Source of the DNA: Dethiobacter alkaliphilus
Lineage (GTDB): Bacteria > Bacillota > Dethiobacteria > DTU022 > UBA8154
Length of the DNA: 64,000 nt
Direction of reading: 5' to 3'
NCBI GenBank assembly: GCA_016841605.1
Contig: JAENYV010000001.1
Span: 165,553 to 229,552, forward strand
Under the pieces are notes generated by a model. It ran no database searches. It worked only from the letters and a program-made list of their open reading frames with translations, and had not been told where the DNA came from. Position 1 is the first letter of the stretch, and each line of letters opens with the position of its first letter. Below, piece by piece: positions 44,252-64,000 of this stretch. The translations under genes and the position numbers were made by a program.

Positions 44252-44301
44252 TTGACACCCCTTGTTTATACATATATAATTTTCCTGTAGTGGTAAAAAA
44301 G
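44252..44301 (+). promoter_or_regulatory. Promoter/leader module copy A (TTGACA-N17-TATAAT + TGGTAAAAAAG box)
   Basis: Perfect sigma-70 hexamers at 44252-44257 and 44275-44280. The conserved box is at 44291-44301. Confidence 0.7.
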
Positions 44302-44398
44302 ACTATTTTTTTTGCCGCGCAGTTTAAATCCAAGAAGTCCGGTTGTTCGTTTTTTCTATATTATGAAGAAAGTAATATGGGAAAAATATGTTTTGCAA

Positions 44399-44424
44399 GC
44401 ATTATGCCTGTTCAGGCATAATGC
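44399..44424 (+). promoter_or_regulatory. 11-bp-stem hairpin/palindrome gcattatgcct-gttc-aggcataatgc in the 5' leader of the SLH protein gene
   Basis: Perfect inverted repeat containing two copies of the GGCATAATGC element that is also found at 33061. Confidence 0.55.
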
Positions 44425-44464: not shown

Positions 44465-47400
44465 ATGCTGATTACTAACAAAAATTGGTGGTACAGGCTC
44501 CTGCCGTCTATTTTGATTGTGCTCCTGCTTCCCTGTTTCTTCGGCCTGCCGGTACCGGCCGCTGTTCATTCCGAAGGGGGCATTGTTACAATAACAGAGC
44601 CCACCGGGAATATCAAGAATACCGTTAGCAAGGAAACAGCAAGCGGACCAGGCGGTTCGGCCGGCAACAATGTCACTTTTAAGGACCAGGTTCCCGTATT
44701 TTTGAACATGAATAATCCTGACGGTGTAACCGGGAAAGAAGTGTATGCAGGGCATACCTTATCCGGAACCGACGGCGCAACCCCCGCGGATACAGACAGC
44801 CGTGGATTTATCGTGGTAATGGATGAAGCCGGAATACCAGCTCCGGCTTTGACTGCCGATACCAGCGATAACCTGCTTGGGAAGTCCATAGATATTACCT
44901 TTACGGATAATGCCTCCTGGCGGGCGGCGATTAGCGGTGTGCTTGTGGACGGGGTAGCGCTGCAGTCCGGCAAATACACGGTAAGCGCCGGCAAAATCAG
45001 CATTTCCGGCAGCGTTTTCCAGGAATCGAAAGAATACGCCATTGTAGTTGCAGCCAATGGTTACACCGATGCAAGTGTGAGCCAGATAATCGGTACATTG
45101 ATAATTACCGGAGACGGGGTGACGGATCCCCAAATTTTTACGCAGCCCCAACTCGAGGCAATGCAGCCCCAGCTCGAGGAAATGGAGCCCCAGCATGTTG
45201 TTTACAGTTGCATTAATACCTGGCCCAGCAAGAAATGGTATGTGGGAAAAGGGGTCAAATTAGAAGACCTGCTCACCCAGGCGGGACTGAAAGAAACCGC
45301 CGAACAGATTAAATTCAGTTCCGTTGATGGCTACTATATGACGCTTACAGTCAAGGAGTTATTAACGGACAAGCGTTATTGTTTTCCCAATTTCAAAACC
45401 GGTGGCGACGGAGACGGGCATATTCCCGGTGACCCGTCGGGTGCATTCGAGGTGGAGACTATTCTAGGCCTGGTCAGCGCCGAGGGCACCGACGAATCTT
45501 CCTCTATGAACGATACAAATGCCCTGTTGCTGATGCTGGGGCAGCGGTCAGTTACCGAGCAAACAGGCCCCATATTTGTTAAATACGTCAATAAAATTGA
45601 AGTATTGACTGCTGCACCGGCTAAATGGGATAATCCGACGGCGAGCCCGGATAGTGGCATAGTATCTGCGGGGACCATGGTGGAACTGCATAGCAAGTAC
45701 AACGATTTGGATAAGGTCCATTATACGACGGACGGCAGTACTCCAACCATAGAAAGTCCCATGTATAACTGGATTGCCAGCCGGTGGTGGTCCTCGCGAC
45801 AGGATGTTAAGGACGAAATAAACCACCCGATTGAAATTACAAAGAACACCGCTATTAAGGCAATAGTAATCGGTCCAGGCAAAGAGGACAGCGATATTGT
45901 CACCTTCGAGTACCAGGTTCCTGTTATTATGAACACAGATAATCTTGCCGATGCAACCGAAAACGAAGCATACGCAGGTCATACCTTCACAGCGACAGGC
46001 GGAGCTGAGCCATACAGTTTTGCAGTAACTGCCGGGACACTGCCGGCAGGCATGGTTTTAAACGGTGCCGTATTGGAAGGAACGCCGACTGAGAGTGGGA
46101 CATTTCTCTTCACTGTAACCTTAACGGACAGTGCAGATCCCGCGGATGCAGACAGCCATGAGTTTACCCTGGCGGTTGATGAGGCTGAAGTAGTCACGCC
46201 GGTCTTGAATGCCGATACGACGGACAATAAAGTTGGACAGCCGATCGAGCTGACCTTTACGGATGATGGGCTCTGGCGTTCGGCGATTAGCGGTGTGTTT
46301 GTGGACGAAGTGGTGCTTCAGCCGGAGGAATACACGGTAAGCGCCGGTAAGATTAACATAGCTGCCGGAGTCTTCACGTCAGCAAAAGATTACAGTATCG
46401 TAGTGGAAGCCGAAGGGTACGAAGATGCGGCCGTGACGCAGATTATCACTACGTCGTCAACGCCGGAGACTAAGGAACCACCGGTTCTGACCGCCGATAG
46501 TAGCGATAACCTGAAGGGACGGCCGATCGAGCTGACTTTTACGGATGATGGGCTCTGGCGTTCGGCGATTAGCGGTGTGCTGGTGGACGAAGTGGTGCTT
46601 CAGCCGGAGGAATACACGGTAAGCGCCGGTAAGATTAACATAGCTGCCGGAGTCTTCACGTCAGCAAAAGATTACAGTATCGTAGTGGAAGCCGAAGGGT
46701 ACGAAGATGCGGCCGTGACACAGATTATCACTACGTCGTCAGCGCCGGAAACTAAGGAACCACCGGTTTTGACCGCCGATAATAGCGATAACCTGCTTGG
46801 GCAGGGTATAGATATTACCTTTACGGATGATGGCTCCTGGCGTTCGGCGATTCAAGAGGTTAGTGTGGACGGCGCGGTGCTTCAGCCGGAGAAATACACG
46901 GTTAGTGCCGGTAAGATTGCCATTGTTTCCGGCGTTTTCAAGGAATCGAAAGAATACGCCATCGTAGTTAAAGCAGGCGGGTACCCCGATGCAAGTGTGA
47001 GCCAAACGATTAATAGATTGGTAATTACAGGAGCCGGGGTGACTGAATCCAAGATGTTTACGCAGTCCCAGCTCGAAGCAATGTCGCAGCGCCAGTATGT
47101 GTACAGTTGCATCAATACCTGGCCCAGCAAAAAGTGGTATGTGGGAAAAGGGGTCAAATTGAGCGATCTGCTCACACAGGCGGGGATGAAGGGAAACGCC
47201 AAGCTCATTAAATTTTCTGCCGGCGATGGTTATGCCATGACACTTACTGTTCAGGAAATATTAACGGACAAGCGTTATCGTTTTCCTAATTTCAAGACCG
47301 GTGGCGATGGAGACGGGCATATTCCCGGCGATCCGTCGGGCAAAGTAGAGGTGGAAACTATTCTTGGGCTGGTCAGCGCCGAGGGCACGGACGACCCCTC

Positions 47401-49567
47401 TTATATGAACGACACAAATTCCCTGCTGCTGATGCTGGGACAGCGCTCAGTCATCGAGCAAACCGGCCCCTTATTTGTTAAAAACGTCAATAGAATTGAG
47501 GTACTTACTACTACTCCCGGCAAATGGGATACTCCAAAGGTGACTCCGAGTGGTGGAGAGGTGCCTGTTGGAACCATGGTGGAGCTGCACAGCCTTTTTG
47601 ACGACATGGATAAGGTTCATTACACGATGGACGGCAGTACTCCAACCATAGAAAGTCCCATGTATAACTGGATTGCCAGCCGATGGTGGTCTTCACGGGG
47701 CGAAGAAAAAGTAGCCGAGATTAATCACCCGCTTGAGCTGACAAAAGATACGGTAATCAAAGCAATCACAATTGGTTCCGGTAAGATGAACAGTGATGTT
47801 GTCACCTTTTCCTACAAGGTCAGAACAAGTGCGGACAGCAAAATTACCTCCGGAGAAGGCGGTACAATCAGCCTTGGAGAAGAAGCCGTTCTTGAAATAC
47901 CGGGAGGAGCGCTGACCGGAAGCGGAGCGAGGGAAGTAAAAATAGAACGTGTGGAAACAACTCTCTCGGCCCCGAAGGGCTTCAAGCTACTGGGTAGTGT
48001 ATATGAGTTCAGCGTGGGAGGCAAAAACAGCTACAATTTTGCCAAGAAAGTAACCATTAAGCTCAGCTTTGATGCCGGGGCTGTAAATGCGGACGAGACA
48101 CCGGCCATCCACTATTATGACGAAGCTGCCGGCGAGTGGATAAACCTGGGCGGGGAAGTAAGCGGGAATATAATTACTGTGCAGGTGGATCACTTTACTA
48201 AGTTTGCTGTTATTGCAGCCCTTCCCAGTACTGTGACTGTCAAAGTTGAGCCCCGCGAAGGGGGTACAGTAAGCCTTGGAGAAGAAGCTGTTCTTGCAAT
48301 ACCGGGAGGAGCGCTGACCGGAAGCGGAGCGAGGGAAGTAAAAATAGAACGTGTGGAAACAACTCTCTCGGCCCCGAAGGGCTTCAAGCTACTGGGTAGT
48401 GTATATGAGTTCAGCGTGGGAGGCAAAAACAGCTACAATTTTGCCAAGAAAGTAACCATTAAGCTCAGCTTTGATGCCGGGGCTGTAAATGCGGACGAGA
48501 CACCGGCCATCCACTATTATGACGAAGCTGCCGGCGAGTGGATAAACCTGGGCGGGGAAGTAAGCGGGAATATAATTACTGTGCAGGTGGATCACTTTAC
48601 TAAGTTTGCTGTTATTGCGGCGCTTCCCAGTACTGTGACTGCCAAAGTTGAGCCCCGCGAAGGGGGCACAGTAAGCCTTGGAGAAGAAGCTGTTCTTGCA
48701 ATACCTGAAGGAGCGCTGACCGGAAGCGAAGCACTGGAGGTAAAAATAGAGCGGGTGGTTGTACCTCCTGCTCCACCAGCGGGCTTCAAGCTGCTGAGCG
48801 ATATGTTTGATTTCAGTGTGGACGGCAAGAAGTGGTATCGCTTTGCCGGGGAAGTTACCATCAAGCTCAGCTTCGCTCCTGAGGTAAGAAAAGCGGAAGA
48901 GATCCCGGTTATTTATTGCTACGACGAATTCTCGCGGCGTTGGATAAACCTGGGCGGGGAGATAAACGGGACCACTGTTACTGTACAGGTGGACCACTTC
49001 ACCAAATTTGCCGTAATGGCAGCAATGGAGCAGGGATTGGCAGATATCGCCGGGCACTGGGCGGAATACAGTATTAAAGAACTGCTTACCCTTGGGGCTA
49101 TTAGCGGTTATCCGGACGGCACCTTTAAGCCCGACAAGATAATAACCAGGGCTGAATTTACCACAGTGCTGGCGAAGTCCTTTCAGCTTGAAAACAGGGG
49201 CGAAAAGACCTTTATCGACACTGAGGCACACTGGGCCAAAAATTACATAGCTGCGGCAGTAGCGGAGGGTATTGTCAATGGCTATGACACCGCGACCTTC
49301 GGACCGGATAATCCGGTCACCCGCGAGCAGATGGCTGTGATGACCGTCAAGGCGGCCAAAGTATCTCCGGAAGCAGGAGAGCCCCTCTTTGACGACAGCG
49401 GCAGTATCTCCGCGTGGGCCGGGGAAGCCCTGGTCACAGCGATGGAGAACGGGCTCATAGAGGAATATGCCGATAACACCGTCCGGCCTCAGAACAGTGC
49501 CACCAGGGCCGAAGCTGTTACAGTTATTGTGAATGCGTTGCATAAGGCGGGAGAGAGGAAAATATAA
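44465..49567 (+). CDS. Large S-layer-homology (SLH) cell-surface protein with two divergent sulfite-oxidase-fold domains, two CHB_HEX_C domains, an Ig-like domain, 4x approximately 91-aa 'ADTSDN...ITFTDD' repeats, 3x 134-aa repeats and 3 C-terminal SLH domains
   Basis: 1700 aa with a Sec signal peptide. The SO-like domains lie at about 45110-45620 and 47030-47520 (YSCINTWPSKKWYVGKGVKL...LLLMLGQR...FVKYVNKIEV). The CHB_HEX_C-like domains are recognised by HYTTDGSTPTIESPMYNWIA. The SLH region is at about 49020-49560 (AGHWAEYSIKELLTLGAISGYPDGTFKPD). Confidence 0.85.
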   Translation: MLITNKNWWYRLLPSILIVLLLPCFFGLPVPAAVHSEGGIVTITEPTGNIKNTVSKETASGPGGSAGNNVTFKDQVPVFLNMNNPDGVTGKEVYAGHTLSGTDGATPADTDSRGFIVVMDEAGIPAPALTADTSDNLLGKSIDITFTDNASWRAAISGVLVDGVALQSGKYTVSAGKISISGSVFQESKEYAIVVAANGYTDASVSQIIGTLIITGDGVTDPQIFTQPQLEAMQPQLEEMEPQHVVYSCINTWPSKKWYVGKGVKLEDLLTQAGLKETAEQIKFSSVDGYYMTLTVKELLTDKRYCFPNFKTGGDGDGHIPGDPSGAFEVETILGLVSAEGTDESSSMNDTNALLLMLGQRSVTEQTGPIFVKYVNKIEVLTAAPAKWDNPTASPDSGIVSAGTMVELHSKYNDLDKVHYTTDGSTPTIESPMYNWIASRWWSSRQDVKDEINHPIEITKNTAIKAIVIGPGKEDSDIVTFEYQVPVIMNTDNLADATENEAYAGHTFTATGGAEPYSFAVTAGTLPAGMVLNGAVLEGTPTESGTFLFTVTLTDSADPADADSHEFTLAVDEAEVVTPVLNADTTDNKVGQPIELTFTDDGLWRSAISGVFVDEVVLQPEEYTVSAGKINIAAGVFTSAKDYSIVVEAEGYEDAAVTQIITTSSTPETKEPPVLTADSSDNLKGRPIELTFTDDGLWRSAISGVLVDEVVLQPEEYTVSAGKINIAAGVFTSAKDYSIVVEAEGYEDAAVTQIITTSSAPETKEPPVLTADNSDNLLGQGIDITFTDDGSWRSAIQEVSVDGAVLQPEKYTVSAGKIAIVSGVFKESKEYAIVVKAGGYPDASVSQTINRLVITGAGVTESKMFTQSQLEAMSQRQYVYSCINTWPSKKWYVGKGVKLSDLLTQAGMKGNAKLIKFSAGDGYAMTLTVQEILTDKRYRFPNFKTGGDGDGHIPGDPSGKVEVETILGLVSAEGTDDPSYMNDTNSLLLMLGQRSVIEQTGPLFVKNVNRIEVLTTTPGKWDTPKVTPSGGEVPVGTMVELHSLFDDMDKVHYTMDGSTPTIESPMYNWIASRWWSSRGEEKVAEINHPLELTKDTVIKAITIGSGKMNSDVVTFSYKVRTSADSKITSGEGGTISLGEEAVLEIPGGALTGSGAREVKIERVETTLSAPKGFKLLGSVYEFSVGGKNSYNFAKKVTIKLSFDAGAVNADETPAIHYYDEAAGEWINLGGEVSGNIITVQVDHFTKFAVIAALPSTVTVKVEPREGGTVSLGEEAVLAIPGGALTGSGAREVKIERVETTLSAPKGFKLLGSVYEFSVGGKNSYNFAKKVTIKLSFDAGAVNADETPAIHYYDEAAGEWINLGGEVSGNIITVQVDHFTKFAVIAALPSTVTAKVEPREGGTVSLGEEAVLAIPEGALTGSEALEVKIERVVVPPAPPAGFKLLSDMFDFSVDGKKWYRFAGEVTIKLSFAPEVRKAEEIPVIYCYDEFSRRWINLGGEINGTTVTVQVDHFTKFAVMAAMEQGLADIAGHWAEYSIKELLTLGAISGYPDGTFKPDKIITRAEFTTVLAKSFQLENRGEKTFIDTEAHWAKNYIAAAVAEGIVNGYDTATFGPDNPVTREQMAVMTVKAAKVSPEAGEPLFDDSGSISAWAGEALVTAMENGLIEEYADNTVRPQNSATRAEAVTVIVNALHKAGERKI
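46241..46786 (+). repeat. Two near-identical tandem copies of a roughly 273-bp coding repeat
   Basis: 46241-46513 and 46514-46786 are nearly identical at the nucleotide level (ccgatcgagctgac...gaaccaccggtt). They encode the ADTSDN/ITFTDD-type domain. Confidence 0.85.
47850..49015 (+). repeat. Three tandem copies of a roughly 400-bp coding repeat (copies 1 and 2 identical over more than 330 bp; copy 3 diverged)
   Basis: ccgggaggagcgctgaccggaagcggagcgagggaagtaaaaatagaacgtgtggaaac recurs at 47900 and 48302. The units encode the approximately 134-aa VKIERVETTLSAPKGFKLLGSVYEFSVGG...VDHFTKFAV domain. Confidence 0.85.
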
Positions 49568-49620: not shown

Positions 49621-50205
49621 TTGAGTAAAATGTACCGGAAAAGAATTTCCTTTATAACAACTATAACAACGCTATCGTTATTGTTTTTTCTTCTAATGCT
49701 TTACCTTACGTTTTTGGCCGGATGTCAGGGTGGTCAGCCGACTTCAGCCGGAGAAGGTATTCTAGTAATACGGGGGGATGCTGTGGAAGGTGAAGTTTGC
49801 CTTACCCTGGATGAATTAAAGTCCATGGAGGACGGCCTGATTGAAGACGATTATTTTTCCGTTAATTCATACGGGACAAAGGAGTATTTTCATTTCAAGG
49901 GCATCTGGATCTGGCATGTTTTACAAGAAAAAACGGACTTAAAGGATAATGCCTCCAAGGTGACTTTCATTGCAGAGGACGGTTACACAGTGGAATACAC
50001 GCTGGAAGAGGTCAAGAGGGAAGATTATATTGACGAGCAAAATCCTGCGACAAAGTACAAGATGATCCTGGCCTGGGAAGAAAATGGAAAAGAGTATGAT
50101 CCGGATGAAGGCAATCCCTTTCAACTGGTCGTCGGTCAAAAGGAGCCGGGTGATGAAAACAAACCATACTGGGTGCGCAATGTAAAGACCATCCGCATTG
50201 ATTGA
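49621..50205 (+). CDS. Lipoprotein consisting of a single divergent sulfite-oxidase/YedY-fold (Oxidored_molyb-like) domain lacking the Mo-ligand Cys
   Basis: Lipobox LAGC. ILAWEENGKEYDPDEGNPFQLVVGQKEPGDENKPYWVRNVKTIRI aligns to the SO-family hallmark LLAYEMNGEPL..GFPLRLVVPG..G..VKWL..IEV. Confidence 0.6.
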   Translation: MSKMYRKRISFITTITTLSLLFFLLMLYLTFLAGCQGGQPTSAGEGILVIRGDAVEGEVCLTLDELKSMEDGLIEDDYFSVNSYGTKEYFHFKGIWIWHVLQEKTDLKDNASKVTFIAEDGYTVEYTLEEVKREDYIDEQNPATKYKMILAWEENGKEYDPDEGNPFQLVVGQKEPGDENKPYWVRNVKTIRID

Positions 50206-50261: not shown

Positions 50262-51344
50262 GTGGAAGAAAAAATGAAAAAACATAAGAACTATTACCTG
50301 AGCAATCGGGATCTGCTTATTGTTGCTGTTTTGAGCGGTATCGGAGGAGTGATGAGTACCTATATCGGCTATCTGGGCAATCTCCTGAACCGTATTTGCG
50401 GTGTTCCTTTCGGTGCGGGACAGTTCGTCTCCGGTTTGCATATTTTCTGGTTTATCCTGGTGGCGGGGCTGATCAGGCGACCGGGAGCTGTTACCGTCGC
50501 GGGTCTGCTCAAAGGAGTAATTGAATTGCTCACCGGCAGTACCCACGGGGTTGTCATTGTCTTGATTTCTCTGATACAGGGTCTTATCGTCGATGTTGTC
50601 CTTCTGATTGCCAGGCGCCGGAATTTGGGAAGCTATATGCTGGCCGGCGGGCTTTCCGCCGCCTCAAATGTTTTTGTCTTTCAGCTCCTCTACTTTTCCG
50701 GTGTCCCTTTCACCTATCTTCTCTTTATAGGACTTTTAGCCTTTGTTTCCGGAGTTCTTCTGGCAGGCAGCTTTGGTCACAGTGTGCTGGATATTGTGTT
50801 GCAGGCCAGGCCTTTTCGTTTGGCCGATGCTTCAAGGGAAGAGACAGCCGCAACAGCCGCGACCCCCGGGAGCAAAAAAAGAGTCCTCCCCCGTTTAAGG
50901 ATTGCTGCAACGGTTCTACTGGTTGTGCTGTTTTTTATTGGTGCGGTTTATTACTTTACCGCTGTCTTTGAACCTCCCTGGGTAGGCCCCAGCTGCCGGG
51001 TAGAAGGAGCGGTAGAAAACCCCCTCTCTTTCCAGCTTTCCCGTTTCGACCGGTATGAAACAACCATAACCGCCGAATTAAAGGGGCAGGTTAGCTACAT
51101 CCCTCCGCAGGAGTATACAGGCATCCCCTTAAGTATAATTCTCCAGGAGGCCTCTCCCCTGGATGAGGCTAAAAAGCTTAAAGTTATGGCAACGGATGGT
51201 TATATGGTGGAATTTGAACTGCAAGAAGTGTTAAATGACGACCTGATGGTACTGATCCGGGAAGAAGATATGCTTCGCCTTATAGCCGGAAATTACGAAG
51301 GAGGATACTGGGTGAAACTGGTAAACAGAATGATAGTGGAATAA
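50262..51344 (+). CDS. Fusion protein: N-terminal polytopic membrane domain (5-6 TM, ECF-transporter S-component-like) + C-terminal sulfite-oxidase-fold domain
   Basis: GTG start. TM region 1-190. The C-terminus (ATDGYMVEFELQEV...LIAGNYEGGYWVKLVNRMIVE) is SO-like. It ends at an in-frame TAA, after which the same frame encodes a CHB_HEX_C domain. Confidence 0.55.
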   Translation: MEEKMKKHKNYYLSNRDLLIVAVLSGIGGVMSTYIGYLGNLLNRICGVPFGAGQFVSGLHIFWFILVAGLIRRPGAVTVAGLLKGVIELLTGSTHGVVIVLISLIQGLIVDVVLLIARRRNLGSYMLAGGLSAASNVFVFQLLYFSGVPFTYLLFIGLLAFVSGVLLAGSFGHSVLDIVLQARPFRLADASREETAATAATPGSKKRVLPRLRIAATVLLVVLFFIGAVYYFTAVFEPPWVGPSCRVEGAVENPLSFQLSRFDRYETTITAELKGQVSYIPPQEYTGIPLSIILQEASPLDEAKKLKVMATDGYMVEFELQEVLNDDLMVLIREEDMLRLIAGNYEGGYWVKLVNRMIVE

Positions 51345-51656
51345 ATAAATCTTATTACTGAGGAAGAGCCGGACCAATGGGATGAGCCGACCTCATCGCA
51401 TGTATCGGGGACGGTAACGGCCGGGACACAGGTAACGCTCAATCATACCGGTATCAACGAGGTGAGAATTTATTATACAACTGACAGCAGCACCCCGGAT
51501 GTGAACAGTACCATGTACAATGTAAGCGCTACCTACTACCAGCCGCAGTTGAACGTACCTATTACGATCAACCAAACTGCTACAATTAAGGCTATCGCCA
51601 TCGGACCGGGTAAAACCGATAGCGATGTAGCTGTTTGGACCTATATGTTGGAATAA
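51345..51656 (+). pseudogene. Orphan CHB_HEX_C domain in frame with, and immediately downstream of, the stop codon of the 50262 gene
   Basis: Translation ...EEEPDQWDEPTSSHVSGTVTAGTQVTLNHTGINEVRIYYTTDSSTPDVNSTMYNV...IKAIAIGPGKTDSDVAVWTYMLE is colinear with the domain that follows the SO-like domain in every paralog. There is no start codon except an internal GTG at 51462. Confidence 0.6.
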
Positions 51657-55333: not shown

Positions 55334-55619
55334 GGAATCAGAAGATATCAATCCTCTGGAGGGCGTTATCAACATTGTAGATGCCATGCTGGTATTTGCC
55401 TGCGGACTTATGCTTGCTTTGGCTGTTTACTGGAACATCGACCTGGGCCCCATAGGAGAACGAATCAATATAAACCGTGGACGGGAGGTGACGGAAGTCC
55501 CGGAGTTACGTGACGACCTGATTGAAACCCAAGACCAGGGAAAGCTTTACGAAAGAATGGGCACCGTCTATAAAGACCCCGCAACCGGGCAGCTTTTTAT
55601 GCTGACCGACGAGGAATAA
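55287..55619 (+). CDS. exbD: ExbD/TolR-family protein
   Basis: INPLEGVINIVDAMLVFACGLM matches the ExbD pattern of a single TM plus a periplasmic domain. It overlaps the exbB 3' end. The exact start is uncertain. Confidence 0.6.
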   Translation: MLMNGGLRSRRYRTHRESEDINPLEGVINIVDAMLVFACGLMLALAVYWNIDLGPIGERININRGREVTEVPELRDDLIETQDQGKLYERMGTVYKDPATGQLFMLTDEE

Positions 55620-55643: not shown

Positions 55644-57122
55644 ATGCAAGCTGATAAAAGGAAAGGGGAGACACCCCCGGCATATCCGCCGGAATCTTCT
55701 CAGTTAAAGAGATGGATTTACAGGTCCATGATGATTGTCCTGGGTATGTTAATGCTGGTAAGTATGTTTTACATGCCGTTGCCCGCGGTTGTCCATGCCG
55801 CGACGGACTCGCTGGAAATTACCGGAGACGGGGTGACGGACCCGCTGACCCTGACCCTGACCCAGTTAGAGGAAATGGAGCAATACCAGTATACATACAG
55901 TTGTATTAACACGTGGCCTACCAAAAAATGGTATGTAGGTAAAGGAGTTAAATTGAGCGATCTGCTCGCCAGGGCGGGGATGACCGATGAGGCCAGGCTG
56001 CTTAAATTTACGGCTGTCGACGGTTACACAGTGACGCTTACGGTCAAGGAACTGTTAAAAGATAAGCGTTATCGTTTTCCCAATTTCAAGAGCGGTGGCG
56101 GCGATGGTGACGGGCATACTCCGGGCGATCCTTCGGGTCAGGTGGAGGTAGTGACGATTATCGGCCTGGTCAGCGTCGAAGGCAGCGATAATCCCCAGTA
56201 TATGAACGATCTGAATACTTTGCTGTTGATGCTGGGGCAGCGTGCTGTAACTGAGCAGACAGGAAACCTTTTCGTTAAATATCTGAACAAGATCGAAGTA
56301 CTTACGGACGAGCCGGAAAAATGGGATGCACCGCAGGCCAATCCGGACAGTAGCACAGTGCCCGCGGGAACCATGGTGACACTGAGCAATCTCCACAATG
56401 ATGACGACAAAATTTATTATACCACGGACGGCAGTGAGCCGACCCGGAACAGCCCCATGTATAACTGGATTGCCAAGCGCTGGTGGTCATCACGGGCGGA
56501 TGTACTGGGAACCATCAATCACCCTATCGGACCCATTGAGAAAGATACAATCATCAAGGCGGTTACCATCGGACCCGGTAAAGCGGACAGCGATGTCGTT
56601 ACCTTCAAATATCAGGTTTCCGGGGCTGAGCCGGACAACGGGACATCAACGTCAACAGTCACACCCGGTCCGGAAGAGTCTGAGACAACAGAAGAACACG
56701 GGACAGATGAAATGAAAGGCGAAGTACCCGGGAAACCGTCGCAAAAAATTATCAAGCTTGCCATTGACCGGATGGAAGCGGATATTGACGGCAATACCTG
56801 CGCTCTGGAGGCAGCACCTTATCTCAACACCGAGGTCGGTCGTGTCCTGGTTCCGGTACGGTTTGTCAGCGAAGCCCTGGGTGCCGGAGTTAATTGGAAC
56901 CCGGAAAAAGGACAGATAACCGTCACCGATGAAGGAAAAGAAATTCTCCTGACCCTCGGTTCCGGCAATGTTCAGATCAACGGTATACCGCAGGCCGTTG
57001 ATTGTGTTCCGGTTACACTCCCGCCCGGCCGTACTTTTATCCCCCTCCGCTTTGTGAGTGAGACCCTTGGAGCGAAGGTGGGCTACAAAGCAGAGACCGG
57101 AGAGATCACCATCACAAGATAG
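55644..57122 (+). CDS. Secreted protein: sulfite-oxidase-fold domain (Cys retained) + CHB_HEX_C + copper-amine-oxidase-N-terminal-like cell-wall domain
   Basis: Signal peptide and YSCINTWPTKKWYVGKGVKLSDLL. The C-terminus (VLVPVRFVSEALGAGVNWNPEKGQITVT...FIPLRFVSETLGAKVGY) matches the Cu_amine_oxidN1 domain used as a wall anchor in Clostridia. Confidence 0.75.
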   Translation: MQADKRKGETPPAYPPESSQLKRWIYRSMMIVLGMLMLVSMFYMPLPAVVHAATDSLEITGDGVTDPLTLTLTQLEEMEQYQYTYSCINTWPTKKWYVGKGVKLSDLLARAGMTDEARLLKFTAVDGYTVTLTVKELLKDKRYRFPNFKSGGGDGDGHTPGDPSGQVEVVTIIGLVSVEGSDNPQYMNDLNTLLLMLGQRAVTEQTGNLFVKYLNKIEVLTDEPEKWDAPQANPDSSTVPAGTMVTLSNLHNDDDKIYYTTDGSEPTRNSPMYNWIAKRWWSSRADVLGTINHPIGPIEKDTIIKAVTIGPGKADSDVVTFKYQVSGAEPDNGTSTSTVTPGPEESETTEEHGTDEMKGEVPGKPSQKIIKLAIDRMEADIDGNTCALEAAPYLNTEVGRVLVPVRFVSEALGAGVNWNPEKGQITVTDEGKEILLTLGSGNVQINGIPQAVDCVPVTLPPGRTFIPLRFVSETLGAKVGYKAETGEITITR

Positions 57123-57783: not shown

Positions 57784-60700
57784 ATGCAAACAGTAAAAAA
57801 AAGATGGTGGTACAGGCTTGTACCATCCATCCTGAGTGTGCTGATGATCGTCTGTTCGTTCGGCATGGCGGCACCTGCGGCTGTTTATGCTGTGGACGAT
57901 ATTGAACCTCCTGCCTGGCCGGCAGAGAGCGAATTAACCGCGGATGTCTGCGGCAGCAGTGTGACCTTGAGCTGGCCTGCGGCAACCGATAACGTAGGGG
58001 TTGTCTGCTACGAGGTTTATAAAAACGACGGTCTCATTGATACGGTGACCGGTGCCACTCAGAGAAGCTGCACTGTCTCCGGACTCGATCCTTCTGTCTA
58101 CACCTTCGGCGTACAGGCTGTGGATGACGCCGGCAATCACAGCGAAGCCTTAACGGCCGACGCCACCGTAGAAGCCGTTGCCCTTACAGTTACCGGAGAC
58201 GGTGTAGAGACTCCCATGACCTTTAGCATGACCGATCTACAGGAAATGGAACAGTACCAGCATTTGTACAGTTCAATTAACACCTGGCCCACCAAAAAAT
58301 GGTATGCCGGAGAGGGCGTCAAGCTGACGGACCTTTTAGCCTCCGCCGGAATTAAGGATGAAGCCACGCTGATTACCGTAAAAGCAACTGATGGTTATAG
58401 AATGACGTTTACCCGTCAAGAACTGGTGGAGGACCCCCGCTATTATTATCCGGGTTTGAGAGAAAATGCGGAATATGACGGATCTATACCGGGCTCTCCG
58501 GAGGGGGCGCAGCAGGTGGAGACCATCATAGCACTGCGCAGCGCACAAAGCAATAGCTTAGCAAATATGAATACATCCGATGCTCTGCATTTGCTGATGG
58601 GGCAGAGGTGGGTTACCGAACAAACCAACAACGCGTTTGTGAAACATACCGGGACAATTGAAGTCTCTACTGAGGCCCCGGAAAAATGGGCAAATCCCAT
58701 CGCAGATCCGCCGTCCGGGATTGTGCCCGCGGGGACCGGGGTAATTTTTGACCCTGTCAATATAAATGACATGGACGGGGCCAATTTCCATTATACCACG
58801 GACGGCAGTGATCCTACTTTTGAGAGTCCCATGTATAACTGGATTAAATACCGGTGGTGGTTTAATCGCCCTGACGACCTGCCGATTATAAACCATCCCA
58901 TTAACGTAGACAAAAGTATGACAATTAAAGCGGTGGCTATCGGTTTTGGCAGGGAGGATAGCGATATCCTTACTTTCAATTACCAGGTTCCTCTGCTCAT
59001 TGACACCGGTAATCCTGCCAATGCAACCGAGAACGAAGCCTATGCGGGTCATACCTTTATAGCGGCAGGCGGAGTAGAACCGTACAGTTTTGCGGTAACT
59101 GAGGGAACACTGCCGGCAGGTATGGAACTGAACGGTGCGATATTGGAAGGAACACCGACGGCAAGCGGGACATCTGTTTTCACTGTAACCGTAACCGACA
59201 GTGCAAATCCTGCGAATACAGGCAGCCATGAGTTTACCATGGTGGTAGACGAAGCGGGCGCAGCACCGCCGGCCTTGACCGCCGATACTAGCGATAACAA
59301 AGTCGGACAGGCCATAGATATCACCTTTACCGACGATGCGGCCTGGCGGGCGGCTGTCGGCGGAATAAAAGTCAATGATACTGATTTAAACGGCGAGCAG
59401 TATACACTTGGCGAAGGTAACATCAATATTATTGCCGACGTATTCACCGCTGCCGGTGATTACGTAATTACGGTCCAGGCAACGGGATATGTCGATGCCG
59501 CAGTAACCCAGACCGTAACAGTTGCATCTTCGGACCCGGACGATTTTTATGTATACCAGGGTATATTGGTAGCATACTACGGTTCCGGTGGTGATGTGAT
59601 CATTCCGGATAATTTAGATATAACCGGCATTGGGGGGAGTGCGTTTAGTAATTTAACCAGCCTGACCTCCATAAGCATCCCCGAAGGAGTCACCAGCATT
59701 GACAATAGTGCCTTTCGTGACTGCAGCAACCTGGTTTCAGCCGTCATTCCCGGCACCATTACCAGCATTGGAAACGGTATTTTTTATGATTGCAGCAGCC
59801 TGACTTCGGTCACTATCTTCGAAGGAGTCACCGGCATTGGAGAGCAAATGTTTCGAAATTGTACCAGTCTGGCCTCGCTAACTATCCCCAATAGCGTTAC
59901 CGGTATTGGAGAAAATGCCTTTCTCGACTGCAGCGGCTTGACCTCGCTAACTATCCCCGGCAGCGTTACCGACATTGGCGAAGGTGCCTTTAGAGGTTGC
60001 AGCGGCCTGACTTCGCTAAGTATCCCCGGCAGCGTTACCAGTATGGGAAGGTATGCCTTTCGCGATTGCACTAGCCTGACCTCAGTTACTATCTCTGAAG
60101 GTGTTACCGACATTGGAGAGGATGCTTTTAACGGTTGTAGCGGTCTGACTTCGATAGCTATCCCCGGCAGTGTTACCGGCATTGGAGAAAGTGCCTTTAG
60201 CGGTTGCAGCGGCCTGACTTCAGTCACTATCTCTGAAGGTGTTATTAGCATTGGAGAAGATGCTTTTAGCGGTTGCAGCGGCCTGACTTCAGTTACTATT
60301 CCCGGTAGTGTCACCAGTATTGGAACTAGTGTCTTTAATGTGTGTACCAGTTTGACAACAATTAATGTAAATCCAAGTAACCTCAATTATACCGGTGATG
60401 GTGGGGTATTGTTCAATAAGCTTTTAACAGTACTTGAATGCTATCCGGCTGGAAAAACAGGGGAATATATTGTGCCTGACGGCGTTGAAGCTATTGGCGA
60501 AAGTGCTTTTTCTTCTTGCATCAACCTGGGCTCGCTAGTTTTTCCCGATAGTGTCACCAGCATTGGAGAGTATGCCTTCCGTAACTGTAGCGGCCTGACT
60601 GCGGTTACTATTCCCGGCAGCGTTACCAGTATGGGAAGATATGCTTTTAGAGGTTGCAGCGGCCTGACTTCACTTACTATCTCCGAAGGAGTCACCAGCA

Positions 60701-63700
60701 TTGGAGAGTATGCCTTCCGTGACTGTAGCGGCCTGACTGCGGTTACTATTCCCGGCACTATCACCAGCTTTGAGGATGATGCCTTCCAAGACTGCACTAG
60801 CCTGACTTCGGTCACTATTTCTGAAGGAGTTACCAGCATTGGGAGTGGTGCCTTCAATGGCTGCACTAGCCTGACCACGGTAACTATCCCCAACAGCGTT
60901 ATCAGCATTCAATCTAATGCATTTTCCGGCTGCAGCAGCCTGAATTCGGTAACTATCCCCAACAGCGTCACCATCATTGATACTTATGCGTTTTATGGCT
61001 GCAGTAACCTGAGTTCGTTTACTATCCCTGAAGGTGTCACCGGTATTGGAAGAGCTACGTTTTCCGGCTGCAGCAGCCTGAATTACGTAACTATCCCCGA
61101 AAGCGTTACCATCATTGACAGGGATGCCTTTAAAGACTGCGTCAGTCTGACTTTTATAAATATCCCCGATAACGTCACCAGCATAGGGAGATCTGCCTTT
61201 CAAGGTTGCACCGGCTTTAGTTTGGTTACTATTCCCGGTAGCGTCACCAGTATTGATAGAGATGCCTTTTCCGGATGCAGTAATTTAACATCCATAAATA
61301 TTCCCGAAAGCGTTACCACTATTGGAAGTAATGTGTTCAGCGGATGCAGTAGCTTAACCGTATACGGTTATGACGGTTCCTATGCGCAGAGCTATGCCTC
61401 CGACAATAGTATTCCCTTTGAAGTTATCAGCGGAGCGTTCGCACCGGTCTTGACCCCCGATACTAGCGATAACAAAGTCGGACAGGCCATAGATATCACC
61501 TTTACCGACGATGCGGCCTGGCGGGCGGCTGTCGGCGGAATAAAAGTCAATGATACTGATTTAAACGGCGAGCAGTATACACTTGGCGAAGGTAACATCA
61601 ATATTATTGCCGACGTATTCACCGCTGCCGGTGATTACGTAATTACGGTCCAGGCAACGGGATATACCGATGCCGTAGTAATCCAGACCGTAACAGTTGC
61701 ATCTTCGGACCCGGACGATTTTGTAGTAAACGAGGGTATTCTGTCAGCATACCAGGGTTCCGGCGGTGATGTGATCATTCCGGATAATCTGGGTATAACC
61801 GGCATTGGGGAAGCTGTGTTTGAAAATTTAATAAGCCTCACTTCGATAATTATTCCCGAAGGAGTTACCACCATTGGAGCCAGCGCCTTTCGTGGCTGCA
61901 GCAACCTGGGCTCCATAACTATTCCCGCCGGCGTTACCAGTATTGGAATTGGCGCTATTCGTGATTGCAGCAGTCTGACCTCGGTAACGATTCCCGAAGG
62001 GGTTGAGGATATCGGAAGCTATGCCTTCAGAGGTAGCAACCTGAGCTCCATAACTATTCCCGGCAGTGTCGCCGGTATTGGGAATAGTGCTTTTCGTGAG
62101 TGCAGCAACTTAAGTTCGGTGATCCTCTCCGAAGGAGTTAGCACCATGGGAACTTATGTCTTTAGCGAGTGCACTAGCCTGAGCTCCATAACTATTCCCG
62201 GCAGCGTTACCAGTATTGGAAGTCGCATGTTCAACGGTTGCAGCAGCCTGACCTCGGTAACCCTCTCCGAAGGGGTTGAGGAGATTGGAACTTATGTATT
62301 CTGGAATTGCAGCAGTCTGAGTTCCATAAGTATCCCCGGCAGCGTTACGAGCATTGGCAATTCAGCCTTTGGCGGCTGCACCGGCCTGATCTCCGTTATT
62401 ATTCCCGACAGCATTACCAGTCTGGGAACTAGCATCTTCAGCGGTTGCAGCAATTTGACAGAAGTAACTCTTCCCGACAACCTTACCGGTTTACCGAATA
62501 GTTTGTTTAAAGACTGCAGCAGCCTGATCACAGTAAATATCCCGGAAAGCGTTACGAGCATTGGAGACAGTGTCTTTTCCGGCTGCAGCAGCCTGACTTC
62601 CATAAATATTCCCGATAGTGTTACCTCTATATTGGGCAGTGCCTTTTATAATTGCAGCAGCCTGACTTCTATAAATATTCCTGACAACATTACCGATATT
62701 GCAGGATATCTGTTTTACAATTGTACCAGTCTAGTTTCCATAACCATCCCGGACAATGTTACCGGTATAGGATTTTATGCTTTTAAAAATTGCACCAATT
62801 TAAGCTCCATTATCATCCCCAGTAGTGTCAGCAACATTGCAAATGATGCTTTTCAAGAGTGCAGTAGCTTAACCATATACGGTTATGAAGGCTCTTATGC
62901 GCAGAGCTATGCCTCTGCCAACAGTATTCCTTTTGTAGCGATAGATCCCGTAATCTGGTATGTTGATGACTCCGGCAGCGCCGACTTTACCGCCATACAG
63001 GCAGCCGTGACAGCTGCCGACGCCGGTGATACCATCATTGTAAAAGACGGTACCTATACTGAGAACGTGGTTGTGGATAAAAGTCTGGTTATTCAGTCCG
63101 AAAACGGGGCGGAGCTGACTATTGTCCGGGCGGCCGCTTCAAATGCCGATGTCTTCAAGGTGACAGCAGAGAACGTTACCATTGACGGCTTTAGCATAAC
63201 CGGAGCAACGTCAATGGGGAAATCAGGTATTGCAGTCTTTGGTTCGACCAGTGGCTCCTGCACTATTATTAATAATCAGTGCAGCGAGAACAATCAAGGA
63301 ATAACCATTGAAGCACTGACAACAGATAATACGGTTGCCGATAACATCTGTACTCTCAGTGGCAGATACGGCATTTATCTGTCAAACACAACCGGCAACA
63401 TCATAACCGGTAACACTTGCTCAAACAACACGGCTAGCTCCGGTTTTGCTCTCTATCTGGCGGATAATGCTGATAATAATACTGTTAATGATAACATCAC
63501 AGACTCAAATAACATCGGTATACGGGTTAAAAACGCAGACTCTAATTTGCTCTTTAACAACACCTCCTCAAACAATAACTACGGCCTGGAAATTGCCACC
63601 GGCTCTCTAGACAATGTTTTTTACCTGAACAATTTTGTGGGAAATACCAGTAGTCAGTTATCCCTGGGGTACGGTGCGGTGGCCGGTAATTTCTGGAACT

Positions 63701-64000
63701 CCCAGACGGAACAGACCTACACGTTCAATGAAACTCAGTATACCGGTCAAGTGGGCAACTACTGGAGCGACTATACCGGTACGGATGCGGATAGTAACGG
63801 CATCGGTGATACGCCATACGGGACATTCACGAACGAGTATGACAACTATCCTTTGATGGGGCAATGGGAGAACGGCGTTATCACTGTGACCGAACCAACG
63901 CCGGTTTATTCAGTTCTTCCCGTAGCCGATGATGCTTATACTATTGGGACAACACCGGAAGGCATCAAAACCATGACCGTAAATGAAGGTAAAACAGGAT
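57784..64000 (+). CDS. Giant cell-surface protein (more than 2070 aa, 3' end outside window): FN3-like, sulfite-oxidase-fold domain, CHB_HEX_C, Ig-like (He_PIG-type), two [ADTSDN/ITFTDD-domain + BspA-type leucine-rich-repeat array] blocks, right-handed beta-helix (NosD/PbH1-like) region
   Basis: ATG about 10 nt after an AAGGAG RBS, then a signal peptide (MQTVKKRWWYRLVPSILSVLMIVCSFGMAAPAAVYA). The SO-like segment has Ser at the Cys position (YSSINTWPTKKWYAGEGVKL). LRR_5 consensus is IPxxVTSIGxxAFxxCSxLTSV. The beta-helix segment is NNQCSENNQGITIE...GNTCSNN. The frame stays open to the window end. Minus-strand ORFs inside are repeat artefacts. Confidence 0.85.
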   Translation, partial: MQTVKKRWWYRLVPSILSVLMIVCSFGMAAPAAVYAVDDIEPPAWPAESELTADVCGSSVTLSWPAATDNVGVVCYEVYKNDGLIDTVTGATQRSCTVSGLDPSVYTFGVQAVDDAGNHSEALTADATVEAVALTVTGDGVETPMTFSMTDLQEMEQYQHLYSSINTWPTKKWYAGEGVKLTDLLASAGIKDEATLITVKATDGYRMTFTRQELVEDPRYYYPGLRENAEYDGSIPGSPEGAQQVETIIALRSAQSNSLANMNTSDALHLLMGQRWVTEQTNNAFVKHTGTIEVSTEAPEKWANPIADPPSGIVPAGTGVIFDPVNINDMDGANFHYTTDGSDPTFESPMYNWIKYRWWFNRPDDLPIINHPINVDKSMTIKAVAIGFGREDSDILTFNYQVPLLIDTGNPANATENEAYAGHTFIAAGGVEPYSFAVTEGTLPAGMELNGAILEGTPTASGTSVFTVTVTDSANPANTGSHEFTMVVDEAGAAPPALTADTSDNKVGQAIDITFTDDAAWRAAVGGIKVNDTDLNGEQYTLGEGNINIIADVFTAAGDYVITVQATGYVDAAVTQTVTVASSDPDDFYVYQGILVAYYGSGGDVIIPDNLDITGIGGSAFSNLTSLTSISIPEGVTSIDNSAFRDCSNLVSAVIPGTITSIGNGIFYDCSSLTSVTIFEGVTGIGEQMFRNCTSLASLTIPNSVTGIGENAFLDCSGLTSLTIPGSVTDIGEGAFRGCSGLTSLSIPGSVTSMGRYAFRDCTSLTSVTISEGVTDIGEDAFNGCSGLTSIAIPGSVTGIGESAFSGCSGLTSVTISEGVISIGEDAFSGCSGLTSVTIPGSVTSIGTSVFNVCTSLTTINVNPSNLNYTGDGGVLFNKLLTVLECYPAGKTGEYIVPDGVEAIGESAFSSCINLGSLVFPDSVTSIGEYAFRNCSGLTAVTIPGSVTSMGRYAFRGCSGLTSLTISEGVTSIGEYAFRDCSGLTAVTIPGTITSFEDDAFQDCTSLTSVTISEGVTSIGSGAFNGCTSLTTVTIPNSVISIQSNAFSGCSSLNSVTIPNSVTIIDTYAFYGCSNLSSFTIPEGVTGIGRATFSGCSSLNYVTIPESVTIIDRDAFKDCVSLTFINIPDNVTSIGRSAFQGCTGFSLVTIPGSVTSIDRDAFSGCSNLTSINIPESVTTIGSNVFSGCSSLTVYGYDGSYAQSYASDNSIPFEVISGAFAPVLTPDTSDNKVGQAIDITFTDDAAWRAAVGGIKVNDTDLNGEQYTLGEGNINIIADVFTAAGDYVITVQATGYTDAVVIQTVTVASSDPDDFVVNEGILSAYQGSGGDVIIPDNLGITGIGEAVFENLISLTSIIIPEGVTTIGASAFRGCSNLGSITIPAGVTSIGIGAIRDCSSLTSVTIPEGVEDIGSYAFRGSNLSSITIPGSVAGIGNSAFRECSNLSSVILSEGVSTMGTYVFSECTSLSSITIPGSVTSIGSRMFNGCSSLTSVTLSEGVEEIGTYVFWNCSSLSSISIPGSVTSIGNSAFGGCTGLISVIIPDSITSLGTSIFSGCSNLTEVTLPDNLTGLPNSLFKDCSSLITVNIPESVTSIGDSVFSGCSSLTSINIPDSVTSILGSAFYNCSSLTSINIPDNITDIAGYLFYNCTSLVSITIPDNVTGIGFYAFKNCTNLSSIIIPSSVSNIANDAFQECSSLTIYGYEGSYAQSYASANSIPFVAIDPVIWYVDDSGSADFTAIQAAVTAADAGDTIIVKDGTYTENVVVDKSLVIQSENGAELTIVRAAASNADVFKVTAENVTIDGFSITGATSMGKSGIAVFGSTSGSCTIINNQCSENNQGITIEALTTDNTVADNICTLSGRYGIYLSNTTGNIITGNTCSNNTASSGFALYLADNADNNTVNDNITDSNNIGIRVKNADSNLLFNNTSSNNNYGLEIATGSLDNVFYLNNFVGNTSSQLSLGYGAVAGNFWNSQTEQTYTFNETQYTGQVGNYWSDYTGTDADSNGIGDTPYGTFTNEYDNYPLMGQWENGVITVTEPTPVYSVLPVADDAYTIGTTPEGIKTMTVNEGKTG
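59285..59620 (+). repeat. Dispersed near-identical duplicate (copy 1) of a roughly 330-bp coding segment; copy 2 at 61458-61800
   Basis: gatactagcgataacaaagtcggacaggccatagatatcacctttaccgacgatgcggcctggcgggcggctgtcggcggaataaaagtcaatgatactg... is identical in both copies for more than 200 bp and then slightly diverged. Confidence 0.85.

Follow-up and report, generated by a model that had tools for sequence, protein, structure and literature searches.

A 64-kb stretch of the Dethiobacter alkaliphilus genome (hereafter the window, whose positions serve for all nucleotide coordinates) contains, between 44.4 and 64 kb, a family of surface and membrane proteins that share a domain related to the molybdenum cofactor (Moco)-binding domain of the sulfite oxidase (SUOX) family. 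Seven copies of this SUOX-like domain were found in six genes by motif search and alignment, and all the genes attributed to it in an earlier note on this DNA are present as listed there. Five close copies of about 173 amino acids (aa), with pairwise identities of 49-77%, belong to p44465 (twice), p52907, p55644 and p57784. Two distant copies, with 22-26% identity, are carried by the lipoprotein p49621 and by the C-terminus of p50262, a component of an energy-coupling factor (ECF) transporter. The features of the region are listed below (nt, nucleotides; TM, transmembrane; Mo/W, molybdenum/tungsten).

44465..49567, plus strand: p44465, 1700 aa; Sec-type signal, four Shr-like_HID domains, two SUOX-like+CHB_HEX_C didomains (nt 45095-45919 and 47012-47821, plus strand, mapped by tblastn) and three C-terminal SLH domains (nt 49025-49564, plus strand, Pfam)
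49621..50205, plus strand: p49621, 194-aa lipoprotein with lipobox LAGC and one distant SUOX-like domain (PF00174, 29.1 bits)
50262..51344, plus strand: p50262, YkoE-type ECF S-component with a C-terminal SUOX-like domain (PF09819 and PF00174)
51345..51653, plus strand: CHB_HEX_C/Fn3_assoc-like remnant, 103 stop-free codons (EEPDQWDEP…), no start codon
51698..52543, minus strand: modD, Mo/W-transport-associated protein resembling quinolinate phosphoribosyltransferase (TIGR01334, 218 bits for a cut-off of 179)
52907..54655, plus strand: p52907, 582 aa; Sec signal, SUOX-like+CHB_HEX_C (nt 53036-53839), Big_2, C-terminal TM segment
54662..55333, plus strand: ExbB-like proton-channel protein of the MotA/TolQ/ExbB family (PF01618, 35.9 bits)
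55287..55619, plus strand: DUF2149 protein (PF09919, 36.9 bits), partner of the ExbB-like protein
55644..57122, plus strand: p55644, 492 aa; Sec signal, SUOX-like+CHB_HEX_C (nt 55806-56648), linker, Cu_amine_oxidN1 (nt 56769-57119)
57784..64000, plus strand: p57784, more than 2072 aa, cut by the window end; Sec signal, fn3, SUOX-like+CHB_HEX_C (nt 58180-58989)

Fold, copies and architectures of the SUOX-like domain

The homology of this domain to the sulfite oxidase family, which the earlier note had drawn from motifs shared with sulfite oxidase and YedY, is solid. It is established by a profile of the p50262 C-terminal domain, which retrieves SoxC (2xts) from sequence alone with an E-value of 3e-6, together with a fold comparison in which the domain displays the three-dimensional SUOX Moco-domain fold. 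The values of this comparison are 15.9 for SorA, 14.5 for SoxC, 13.5 and 12.4 for two entries of PruR, 13.1 for nitrate reductase, 13.0 for chicken sulfite oxidase and 12.7 for YedY, the next fold class following at about 7. A motif remains recognisable, RLIAGNYEGGYWVK in the S-component fusion corresponding to RLVVPGWEGNMWVK of SoxC. PF00174 (Oxidored_molyb) was assigned by Pfam to all six proteins, with 29.4 bits in p44465, 29.1 in p49621, 24.5 in p50262, 21.1 in p52907, 35.1 in p55644 and 18.7 in p57784; the gathering score of 24 bits is reached in four of them, p52907 and p57784 lying below it. Among 45 representatives of the family, 35 match PF00174 at E<=1e-3. Searched against PDB sequences, the paralog profile gives a marginal match to SorA (E 0.048), and a more canonical domain taken from the homologous locus L054 gives none.

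The cysteine that serves as molybdenum ligand in the enzymes is not conserved. In the window, its position (the C of YSCINTWP) is occupied by C in three copies and by T or S in two others, and the cysteine is absent from the p49621 and p50262 copies, which makes it missing in four copies out of seven. The position is C, A, S, T or V among homologs, no cysteine is invariant in the SUOX-like domain across 19 S-component fusions, and SorA has about 20 residues more in the stretch surrounding the Cys hairpin. No twin-arginine (RR) motif is found among the N-terminal 40 residues of the six window proteins, in line with the observation of the earlier note that the characterised enzymes of this fold depend on twin-arginine translocation (Tat) and the window proteins do not. 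On account of the unconserved ligand and the lack of a Tat motif, the seven domains are read as putative ligand-binding modules of the SUOX fold without catalytic activity. They have in common with SorA, SoxC, YedY/MsrP, sulfite oxidase and assimilatory nitrate reductase the same Moco-binding fold and recognisable motifs, but they differ from these enzymes by the variable Cys position and by the absence of Tat export, of a dimerisation domain and of a redox partner. Their copies are moreover multiplied and fused to non-enzymatic modules, one of them following seven TM helices in its protein.

The nearest non-enzymatic structural relative is PruR (PDB 7kou, 7rkb and 7kp2), a Sec-exported, Cys-less and non-catalytic SUOX fold that binds free pterins in the periplasm of Proteobacteria such as Agrobacterium tumefaciens (PMC11194511). 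The statement of the earlier note that no family is known to pair this fold with Sec signals and Gram-positive wall or S-layer anchors is outdated in view of PruR, although the latter is neither a Gram-positive surface protein nor part of a transporter. With PruR the window domains share a Cys-less SUOX-like fold exported to the extracytoplasmic space. The sequence identity is only about 16%, however, and the PW motif that replaces the cysteine in PruR is not found at that position in the window family. PruR is a small single-domain protein signalling to the DcpA diguanylate cyclase/phosphodiesterase, whereas the window family has no DcpA partner, and Pfam scans revealed no GGDEF or EAL gene beside the window copies. 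The domain is here fused to CHB_HEX_C, to wall or S-layer anchors, to a phosphoesterase or to an ECF S-component and, unlike PruR, relatives of the window family are under the control of riboswitches for Moco or the tungsten cofactor (Wco). A D-G-Y motif is conserved in an alignment of 15 domains (D invariant, G and Y in at least 90%), and its three residues are invariant in the 19 S-component fusions. The aromatic residue preceding V-K near the domain C-terminus is W in the S-component and lipoprotein copies and F in the large paralogs. This residue and the D-G-Y motif may correspond to N102, Y104 and W160 of PruR, to judge from their sequence positions only.

A CHB_HEX_C_1/Fn3_assoc domain directly follows each of the five large copies according to Pfam. 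The earlier note had extended this rule to every copy outside the lipoprotein, which does not hold for p50262, where a TAA stop intervenes at 51342-51344. This stop is the ancestral end of the gene and is directly followed, in frame, by the remnant listed above. The remnant is 42% identical to the CHB_HEX_C part of p55644 (tblastn E 9e-15) and could be the product of a recombination with a paralog or of a recently split fusion. The diversity of anchors previously noticed was found in the form of the three SLH domains, the LAGC lipobox, Cu_amine_oxidN1 and a C-terminal hydrophobic tail, whereas leucine-rich repeats (LRR) and beta-helix are at best putative anchors. These last domains do exist in p57784, which carries He_PIG, two Shr-like_HID domains, two blocks of BspA-type LRR (LRR_5) and a NosD/beta-helix region and which runs off the window end. 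The window has six Shr-like_HID domains altogether, four in p44465 and two in p57784 (scores of 352.9 and 170.9 bits). With these two giant proteins, the receptor set of the window is unusually expanded. The SLH domains and the Bacillota affiliation of the relatives suggest a Gram-positive-type envelope, of which p44465 is proposed to be the outermost, S-layer-anchored receptor.

The p44465 protein also comprises three near-identical repeats of about 134 aa. Its internal duplications are recent: tandem units of 282 bp encoding Shr-like HID domains (46235-46918) are 90% identical, and units of 402 bp encoding the 134-aa repeat, which has no Pfam match (47855-48758), are 96% identical.

A full HMMER search for this domain subtype among 1.84 billion representative proteins retrieves 1327 of them at E<=1e-3, of which 152 reach E<=1e-30; up to 12 copies per protein occur in some members of the family. 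In the 45 representatives examined, CHB_HEX_C is present in 43, Shr-like HID in 23 and SLH in 15. The family proteins are named in databases 'hypothetical', 'molybdopterin-dependent oxidoreductase' or 'ECF transporter S component', about half of them bearing the second name or, plainly, the third.

The ECF S-component fusion, its gene neighbourhood and riboswitches

The p50262 protein, which the earlier note correctly described as a membrane fusion without recognizing the nature of its polytopic part, is a YkoE-type ECF S-component. Its N-terminal half scores 72.2 bits against PF09819 (gathering score 25.2), and its profile matches residues 16-186 to YkoE (5edl) with an E-value of 3e-14. The AlphaFold2 model consists of six helices, a disordered linker, a seventh TM helix (aa 210-235) and the beta-rich SUOX-like domain (aa 244-359, nt about 50967-51341), which according to this model would lie outside the membrane. 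Foldseek retrieved SorA, YkoE (5edl, probability 1.0), YedY and PruR with the model of the fusion. The fusion forms at least 567 clusters at 90% identity and is present in 189 species-level genomes of Bacillota and archaea. The bacterial representatives are Syntrophomonadaceae, Dethiobacteria, Pelotomaculum, Desulfotomaculaceae, Anoxynatronum, Thermovorax and Fermentithermobacillaceae, and the archaeal ones belong to Hermod-, Prometh- and Odinarchaeota, Thermoplasmata and Methanobacteriota.

The surroundings of the fusion were compared in 80 homologous genome loci (numbered L0xx) mapped by tblastn, in which the open reading frames (ORFs) were clustered; the query family, present in 80/80, was the fusion itself. 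A duplicated ECF ATPase (EcfAA) directly follows the S-component in 75 loci and is followed by a CbiQ-type EcfT in 59, the gaps corresponding mostly to contig ends in both cases. A secreted metallophosphoesterase, often of the purple-acid-phosphatase type, is encoded in 40 of the 80 loci, three of them archaeal. In 13 loci this phosphoesterase is fused to a SUOX-like domain, as exemplified by L071 (5476-6762; Metallophos 61 bits, PF00174 27 bits). A kinase resembling aminoglycoside phosphotransferases (APH-like) adjoins EcfT in 22 loci (in L017 at 4432-5157), again including three archaeal ones; Pfam APH was matched with 45.7 and 38.3 bits by two of the four members tested. A SUOX-like lipoprotein cluster is found in 27 loci, mostly directly upstream of the S-component gene, and 55 loci contain at least one further SUOX-like ORF.

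This organization extends to the archaeal domain of life. The archaeal loci, which are Asgard for L070, L072-L075, L077, L078 and L082-L087 and belong to Thermoplasmata or Methanobacteriota for L079, L080 and L088, carry the fusion together with EcfAA and EcfT. Both the phosphoesterase and the APH-like kinase also occur in the Thermoplasmata and Methanobacteriota loci. The S-component gene of Asgard loci is directly preceded by that of a membrane-anchored SUOX-like protein (12/12), and FwdA/FmdA (689 bits) adjoins the 12/12 loci with enough flanking sequence.

The best known counterpart of this module is YkoEDC, a group I ECF transporter for thiamine or its hydroxymethylpyrimidine moiety (HMP). 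Both have a homologous S-component core and, in the relatives of the window, a duplicated YkoD-like ATPase and a CbiQ-type T component. Unlike YkoE, p50262 continues beyond the six-helix core with a seventh TM helix and a SUOX-like domain outside the membrane, and the window family is accompanied by paralogous lipoprotein and wall-bound receptors. Its relatives are controlled by Moco/Wco riboswitches rather than by thiamine pyrophosphate (TPP) riboswitches. Finally, the A and T genes of this dedicated group I system are adjacent in homologous loci but not in the window. There, in a succession unlike that of essentially all other loci, the S-component gene is followed by the CHB_HEX_C remnant and by an inverted modD. 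In L009, the order is instead S-component, EcfAA, EcfT and kinase, then modD on the same strand, a ModE-like gene, an oxidoreductase of the bis-molybdopterin guanine dinucleotide type and a MoeA-like gene. The comparison of 50262-52543 of the window with 10001-15849 of L009 shows two blocks swapped and modD inverted, which suggests a local rearrangement in the window.

A second conserved block links the surface proteins to a putative motor. The succession of a TM-anchored SUOX/CHB_HEX_C/Big_2 protein, ExbB, a DUF2149 protein and a wall-anchored SUOX/CHB_HEX_C protein is kept in at least eight genome loci (L009, L016, L021, L022, L026, L027, L048 and L081) as well as in L001 and L005. In the window, p52907 ends 7 nt before the ExbB-like gene (family spacing -16 to +7 nt). 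An acidic, Pro-rich linker leads in this protein to a conserved C-terminal TM anchor with a KKxxEYxKEL tail, and the tail …AIFLxFxLSGxGKKYxEYxKEL is found, with the same spacing range, in seven other loci. The gene reported in the earlier note as exbD encodes the DUF2149 protein, which is not Pfam ExbD; the assignment of exbB stands. ExbB and DUF2149 form the pair known as HmuU/HmuV in the heme-uptake operon of P. gingivalis (PMC11681262). As in TonB-ExbB-ExbD and HmuU/HmuV, an ExbB-family channel and a small single-pass partner lie inside a cofactor-uptake locus, in close coupling with a membrane protein that spans the membrane once and has a long Pro/acidic linker. The window differs from the TonB system in that only ExbB was matched: neither ExbD (PF02472) nor TonB gave a Pfam match in the large ORFs of 1-14.2 kb and 24.7-64 kb, the segment of about 14.4-24.8 kb being unscanned, and no TonB-dependent outer-membrane receptor was matched. 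In addition, the coupled protein, p52907, has its anchor at the C-terminus and includes the ligand-binding domain.

The region also comprises genes of Mo/W metabolism, as stated in the earlier note for modABC, modD and the regulator:

31662..32828, plus strand: putative Mo/W-responsive regulator, a ModE-type helix-turn-helix fused to a TupA-like binding domain (TIGR00637 70 bits, TupA model 154 bits, both below cut-off)
39531..41958, plus strand: ModA/ModB/ModC-type molybdate/tungstate ATP-binding cassette (ABC) transporter (Pfam and NCBIfam models; ModA 95 bits for a cut-off of 62.5, permease 249 for 210, WtpC-like ATPase)

In L089, a 95%-identical relative, the order of the mod genes, a radical SAM gene, an unknown protein, the SLH protein, the lipoprotein and the S-component is kept. 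The co-occurrence of the domain with tup/mod genes in other genomes, for which the earlier note suggested a search, is observed in L017, L038, L043, L046, L047, L056 and L057, in which ModB/ModC and TupA-like binding proteins adjoin the operon.

A further link with the Mo/W cofactor is provided by RNA elements. In L001, L005/L006 and L007/L008, the Moco/Wco riboswitch RF01055 of Rfam immediately precedes the operon, with scores of 55-80 bits. A covariance model (R1) built from three RF01055 hits was used to search 1.13 Mb, made up of the 80 genome loci and the window, and yielded 37 aptamers, of which 35 have the orientation of the operon. An aptamer is located upstream of the S-component on the same strand in 26 of the 64 bacterial loci. 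It precedes the S-component start by about 60-400 nt in L056, L057, L053, L046 and L037, and in other loci it precedes phosphoesterase, lipoprotein or SLH-protein genes leading into the operon. Past EcfT or the kinase, a second aptamer heads further surface-protein genes in L038, L043, L047, L053, L056 and L057, and one is also present in L041/L042. Its targets in L038 and L043 are proteins with up to six copies of the domain (A2-type), and in L056 a protein of the L054 cluster, which matches PF00174 with 74 bits. In L047 and L057, they are giant proteins with Shr-like HID in which the domain profile detects no SUOX-like domain. The RNA structure is supported by strong covariation in the aptamer alignment, in which 93% of cells are paired and double-sided changes number 229, as compared with 72 for shuffles. 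Stem P3 is missing from every aptamer found, and the P3-less class has been tied to tungsten-cofactor metabolism by Regulski et al. 2008 (PMC2408646). Besides RF01055, an Rfam scan of 19 distinct loci and the window detected tRNAs and one c-di-GMP-I riboswitch, and no riboswitch for TPP, tetrahydrofolate (THF), cobalamin, preQ1 or purine.

The c-di-GMP-I riboswitch (87 bits) is located at 16795-16880 of L016, about 3.3 kb downstream of EcfT and the ECF operon. It closely follows a ModE-like gene encoded on the minus strand and precedes a plus-strand ORF of 657 aa. The two sole Moco riboswitches on the minus strand are at 15599-15718 of L014 and 7946-8061 of L017. The latter precedes an operon of TupA-like binding protein, ModB and ModC that converges on the ECF operon; the former is beside a 67-aa TOBE (Mop-like) gene and has no obvious downstream gene.

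The proposed cofactor relay and competing explanations

The fusion to an ECF S-component, the riboswitches upstream of the operon and the neighbouring mod/tup, modD, ModE-like, moeA-like and fwdA genes favor one of the functions considered in the earlier note, namely the binding or scavenging of a pterin or Mo/W cofactor; the non-catalytic binding fold listed there as a distinct option is compatible with it. In general terms, it is very probable that an ECF importer connected with Mo/W-cofactor homeostasis receives its ligand from binding modules without catalytic activity. With more reserve, a tiered surface relay is favored as the mechanism, which would capture a cofactor of the molybdopterin class or its precursor and pass it to the ECF importer, one membrane-anchored receptor being coupled to the ExbB/DUF2149 motor. 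The identity of the ligand is proposed with similar caution: it would be of the molybdopterin type, whether Wco or Moco, metal-free molybdopterin (MPT), or a dephosphorylated, trimmed or precursor form.

According to this model, the wall and S-layer proteins p44465, p57784 and p55644 would bind the ligand, or proteins carrying it, at the cell periphery, where Shr-like HID domains may dock carrier proteins. The ligand would then move inward from p52907 to the lipoprotein p49621 and to the SUOX-like domain on the outer face of p50262, which would import it by means of an EcfA-A'-T module. The ExbB/DUF2149 pair, translationally coupled to p52907, probably uses the proton-motive force for ligand release or transfer in a TonB-like manner. 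In most relatives, the secreted metallophosphoesterase would act before uptake by cleaving off a phosphate or nucleotide, and the imported product would receive a phosphate again from the APH-like kinase encoded beside EcfT, as is usual in vitamin salvage. MoeA would insert the metal, supplied by MoeA and the Mod/Tup transporter. Such a relay recalls the Isd/Shr NEAT system, in which paralogous ligand-binding domains are likewise anchored at different depths of the envelope, from giant outer receptors with Shr-like HID through intermediate wall proteins and a lipoprotein to a membrane importer. The domain is here SUOX-like and not NEAT, for which Pfam gives no match in the window proteins (Shr-like_HID is the sole shared domain). 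The importer is of the ECF type, the predicted ligand a pterin cofactor and not heme, and the anchors are SLH, Cu_amine_oxidN1, a TM helix or a lipid instead of sortase/LPXTG; transfer between tiers is in the present case only predicted.

Several observations weigh against a molybdopterin-type ligand or its uptake in this organism. The pocket of PruR is too short for Moco, and its ligands are monapterin and neopterin (PMC11194511). YkoE is part of a transport system for thiamine/HMP. The lability of Moco and Wco is high, and bacteria are not known to take them up. No Moco riboswitch was detected in the window at the Rfam gathering score, at E<=1 (30000-64000) or with model R1, and the Mo/W link therefore rests there on protein genes only. 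About half of the bacterial loci are without riboswitch as well. Terminator and promoter scans gave no ON/OFF assignment of the expression platform; the promoter scan indicated a strong promoter-like site 60 nt upstream of the L037 aptamer. Riboswitch and neighbourhood constitute a link to Mo/W-cofactor homeostasis and not the identity of the transported ligand. Lastly, the tblastn map of the 64-kb window contains no EcfAA, EcfT, phosphoesterase or kinase. The S-component must therefore rely on genes located outside, or be partly disabled; the missing genes may be located beyond the window.

The affiliation of YkoE and the ligands of PruR would suit the uptake of a different organic nutrient, which might be a small pterin other than Moco, a base resembling purines or a pyrimidine of the thiamine/HMP type, in which case the Mo/W linkage would be indirect (the nutrient being for instance the substrate of a Mo/W enzyme). 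Genes for a 5'-nucleotidase and an adenine deaminase are indeed present in the vicinity of L003, and a phosphatase outside combined with a kinase inside is generic to the salvage of vitamins and nucleosides. This explanation is unlikely, yet it is the best of the alternatives: none of the TPP, THF, preQ1 or purine riboswitches was detected in the loci scanned, and the neighbouring genes (mod/tup, modD, MoeA-like) are those of cofactor supply and not of one catabolic pathway.

The same neighbours fit a second possibility, in which the SUOX-like domains would keep only the anion pocket and bind tungstate or molybdate, the ECF transporter being a new high-affinity W/Mo importer. ECF systems for metal ions do exist (CbiMNQO/NikMNQO). 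The context of mod/tup, modD and ModE-like genes is that expected for oxyanion capture, and Moco/Wco riboswitches typically control molybdate/tungstate transporters (PMC2408646). Such an importer would nevertheless be redundant with the ModABC/TupABC-type transporter encoded beside the ECF genes in the window and in the seven mod/tup-containing loci cited above (L017 to L057). Its S-component is YkoE-like, that is, of the organic-vitamin type, and not CbiM/NikM-like, the metallophosphoesterase and the APH-like kinase would have no role in oxyanion uptake, and the nearest non-enzymatic relative of the domain binds pterins. Oxyanion capture is accordingly regarded as quite improbable.

Surface redox proteins akin to MsrP had also been envisaged in the earlier note. 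They would carry Moco or Wco and act like MsrP or sulfite oxidase, with a riboswitch matching their expression to cofactor supply. Despite the genuine homology to the SUOX catalytic domain, the three copies that keep a cysteine at the ligand position and the occurrence of Moco riboswitches before genes of cofactor-using enzymes (PMC2408646), this role is very improbable: the ligand is missing in most window copies and varies between C, S, T, A and V among homologs, Tat motifs are lacking, and Pfam scans of the window revealed neither a SUOX dimerisation domain nor a haem- or YedZ-like redox partner. One copy ends a polytopic membrane protein and others are strung up to 12 times along a giant protein, and the obligatory linkage to an ECF importer would be left unexplained. 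A purely structural or adhesive function in the S-layer, with the fold reused to bind carbohydrate or protein, would suit the SLH, BspA LRR, Big_2, CHB_HEX_C and beta-helix architectures and the recent expansion of repeats, but hardly deserves more credit, given that 189 genomes encode the domain as part of an S-component, that it is joined to a phosphoesterase in 13 loci and that riboswitch control reaches giant surface-protein genes (L038, L043) and a PF00174-type protein (L056).

The relay feeding an ECF importer with a molybdopterin-type ligand thus remains the preferred explanation. Its parts are all of known kinds (ECF transporter, SUOX/PruR fold, ExbB); their combination and the predicted substrate are new. 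No description of a Moco-riboswitch-controlled ECF transporter, of a bacterial Moco/MPT importer or of such SUOX-like receptors was found in the searchable literature. Moco and Wco are generally regarded as cofactors that each cell must make. Their uptake is known only in nematodes, where the transporter is not identified, and how pterins cross membranes is stated to be unknown in a June 2026 review (PMC13259868). It is conceivable, as a tentative proposal, that the system described here represents the first prokaryotic salvage of a Mo/W pterin cofactor, operating in strictly anaerobic Bacillota and in a simpler form in Asgard, Thermoplasmata and methanogen-related archaea. The cofactor would be harvested from neighbours by means of the relay, phosphoesterase, ECF transporter, kinase, MoeA and an ExbB motor working without apparent outer membrane. 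If so, the existence of a dedicated importer in bacteria and archaea would open the cross-feeding of this cofactor within anaerobic syntrophic communities to experimental test and would offer a molecular handle on the membrane crossing of a labile Mo/W cofactor. The textbook rule that ECF transporters, by their classical definition, operate without extracytoplasmic binding proteins would be broken here, and an ExbB-type motor would serve a surface receptor in an organism with wall anchors of the SLH/S-layer type. The SUOX fold is extended in this way from enzymes and one signalling protein, PruR, to a large family of receptors.

Other gene modules of the window

A second conserved module occupies 33027-44177 of the window and recurs at 4154-12713 of L090, 4069-9128 of L091 and 1-6346 of L089. 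It associates a Peripla_BP_2/FecCD/ABC transporter with an AmmeMemoRadiSam-like radical SAM enzyme (42029-43030) and a 390-aa protein (43005-44177; 66 clusters) for which neither a Pfam match nor a PDB sequence match was found. The module is also present in Aceticella autotrophica, where its neighbours are DUF364/DUF4213 and a ModABC-like transporter, and in another contig, in which the 390-aa protein bears the name Dethiobacteria at NCBI. The three unusual genes at 36867-39452, which separate the FecCD-type from the Mod-type transporter in the window, encode a SBP_bac_6 protein (no NCBIfam match), a CobW/HypB/MobB-like GTPase and a 333-aa ABC ATPase with an N-terminal extension of about 95 aa.

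Two other groups of genes are located near the beginning of the window. A cluster of the tellurite/stress-resistance type, unrelated to the SUOX-like proteins, extends from 111 to 6246 and comprises a StiP-like cysteine protease with a PELOTA domain, AIM24, an 815-aa YceG_bac protein and TelA. At 9676-14197 and 7352-9292 (minus strand), genes of the beta-oxidation type (3-hydroxyacyl-CoA dehydrogenase, enoyl-CoA hydratase, old-yellow-enzyme-type reductase and acyl-CoA ligase) are found beside a sigma-54 activator. Their closest homologs are from Syntrophomonadales and Dethiobacteria, and these genes are consistent with a syntrophic fatty-acid oxidiser.

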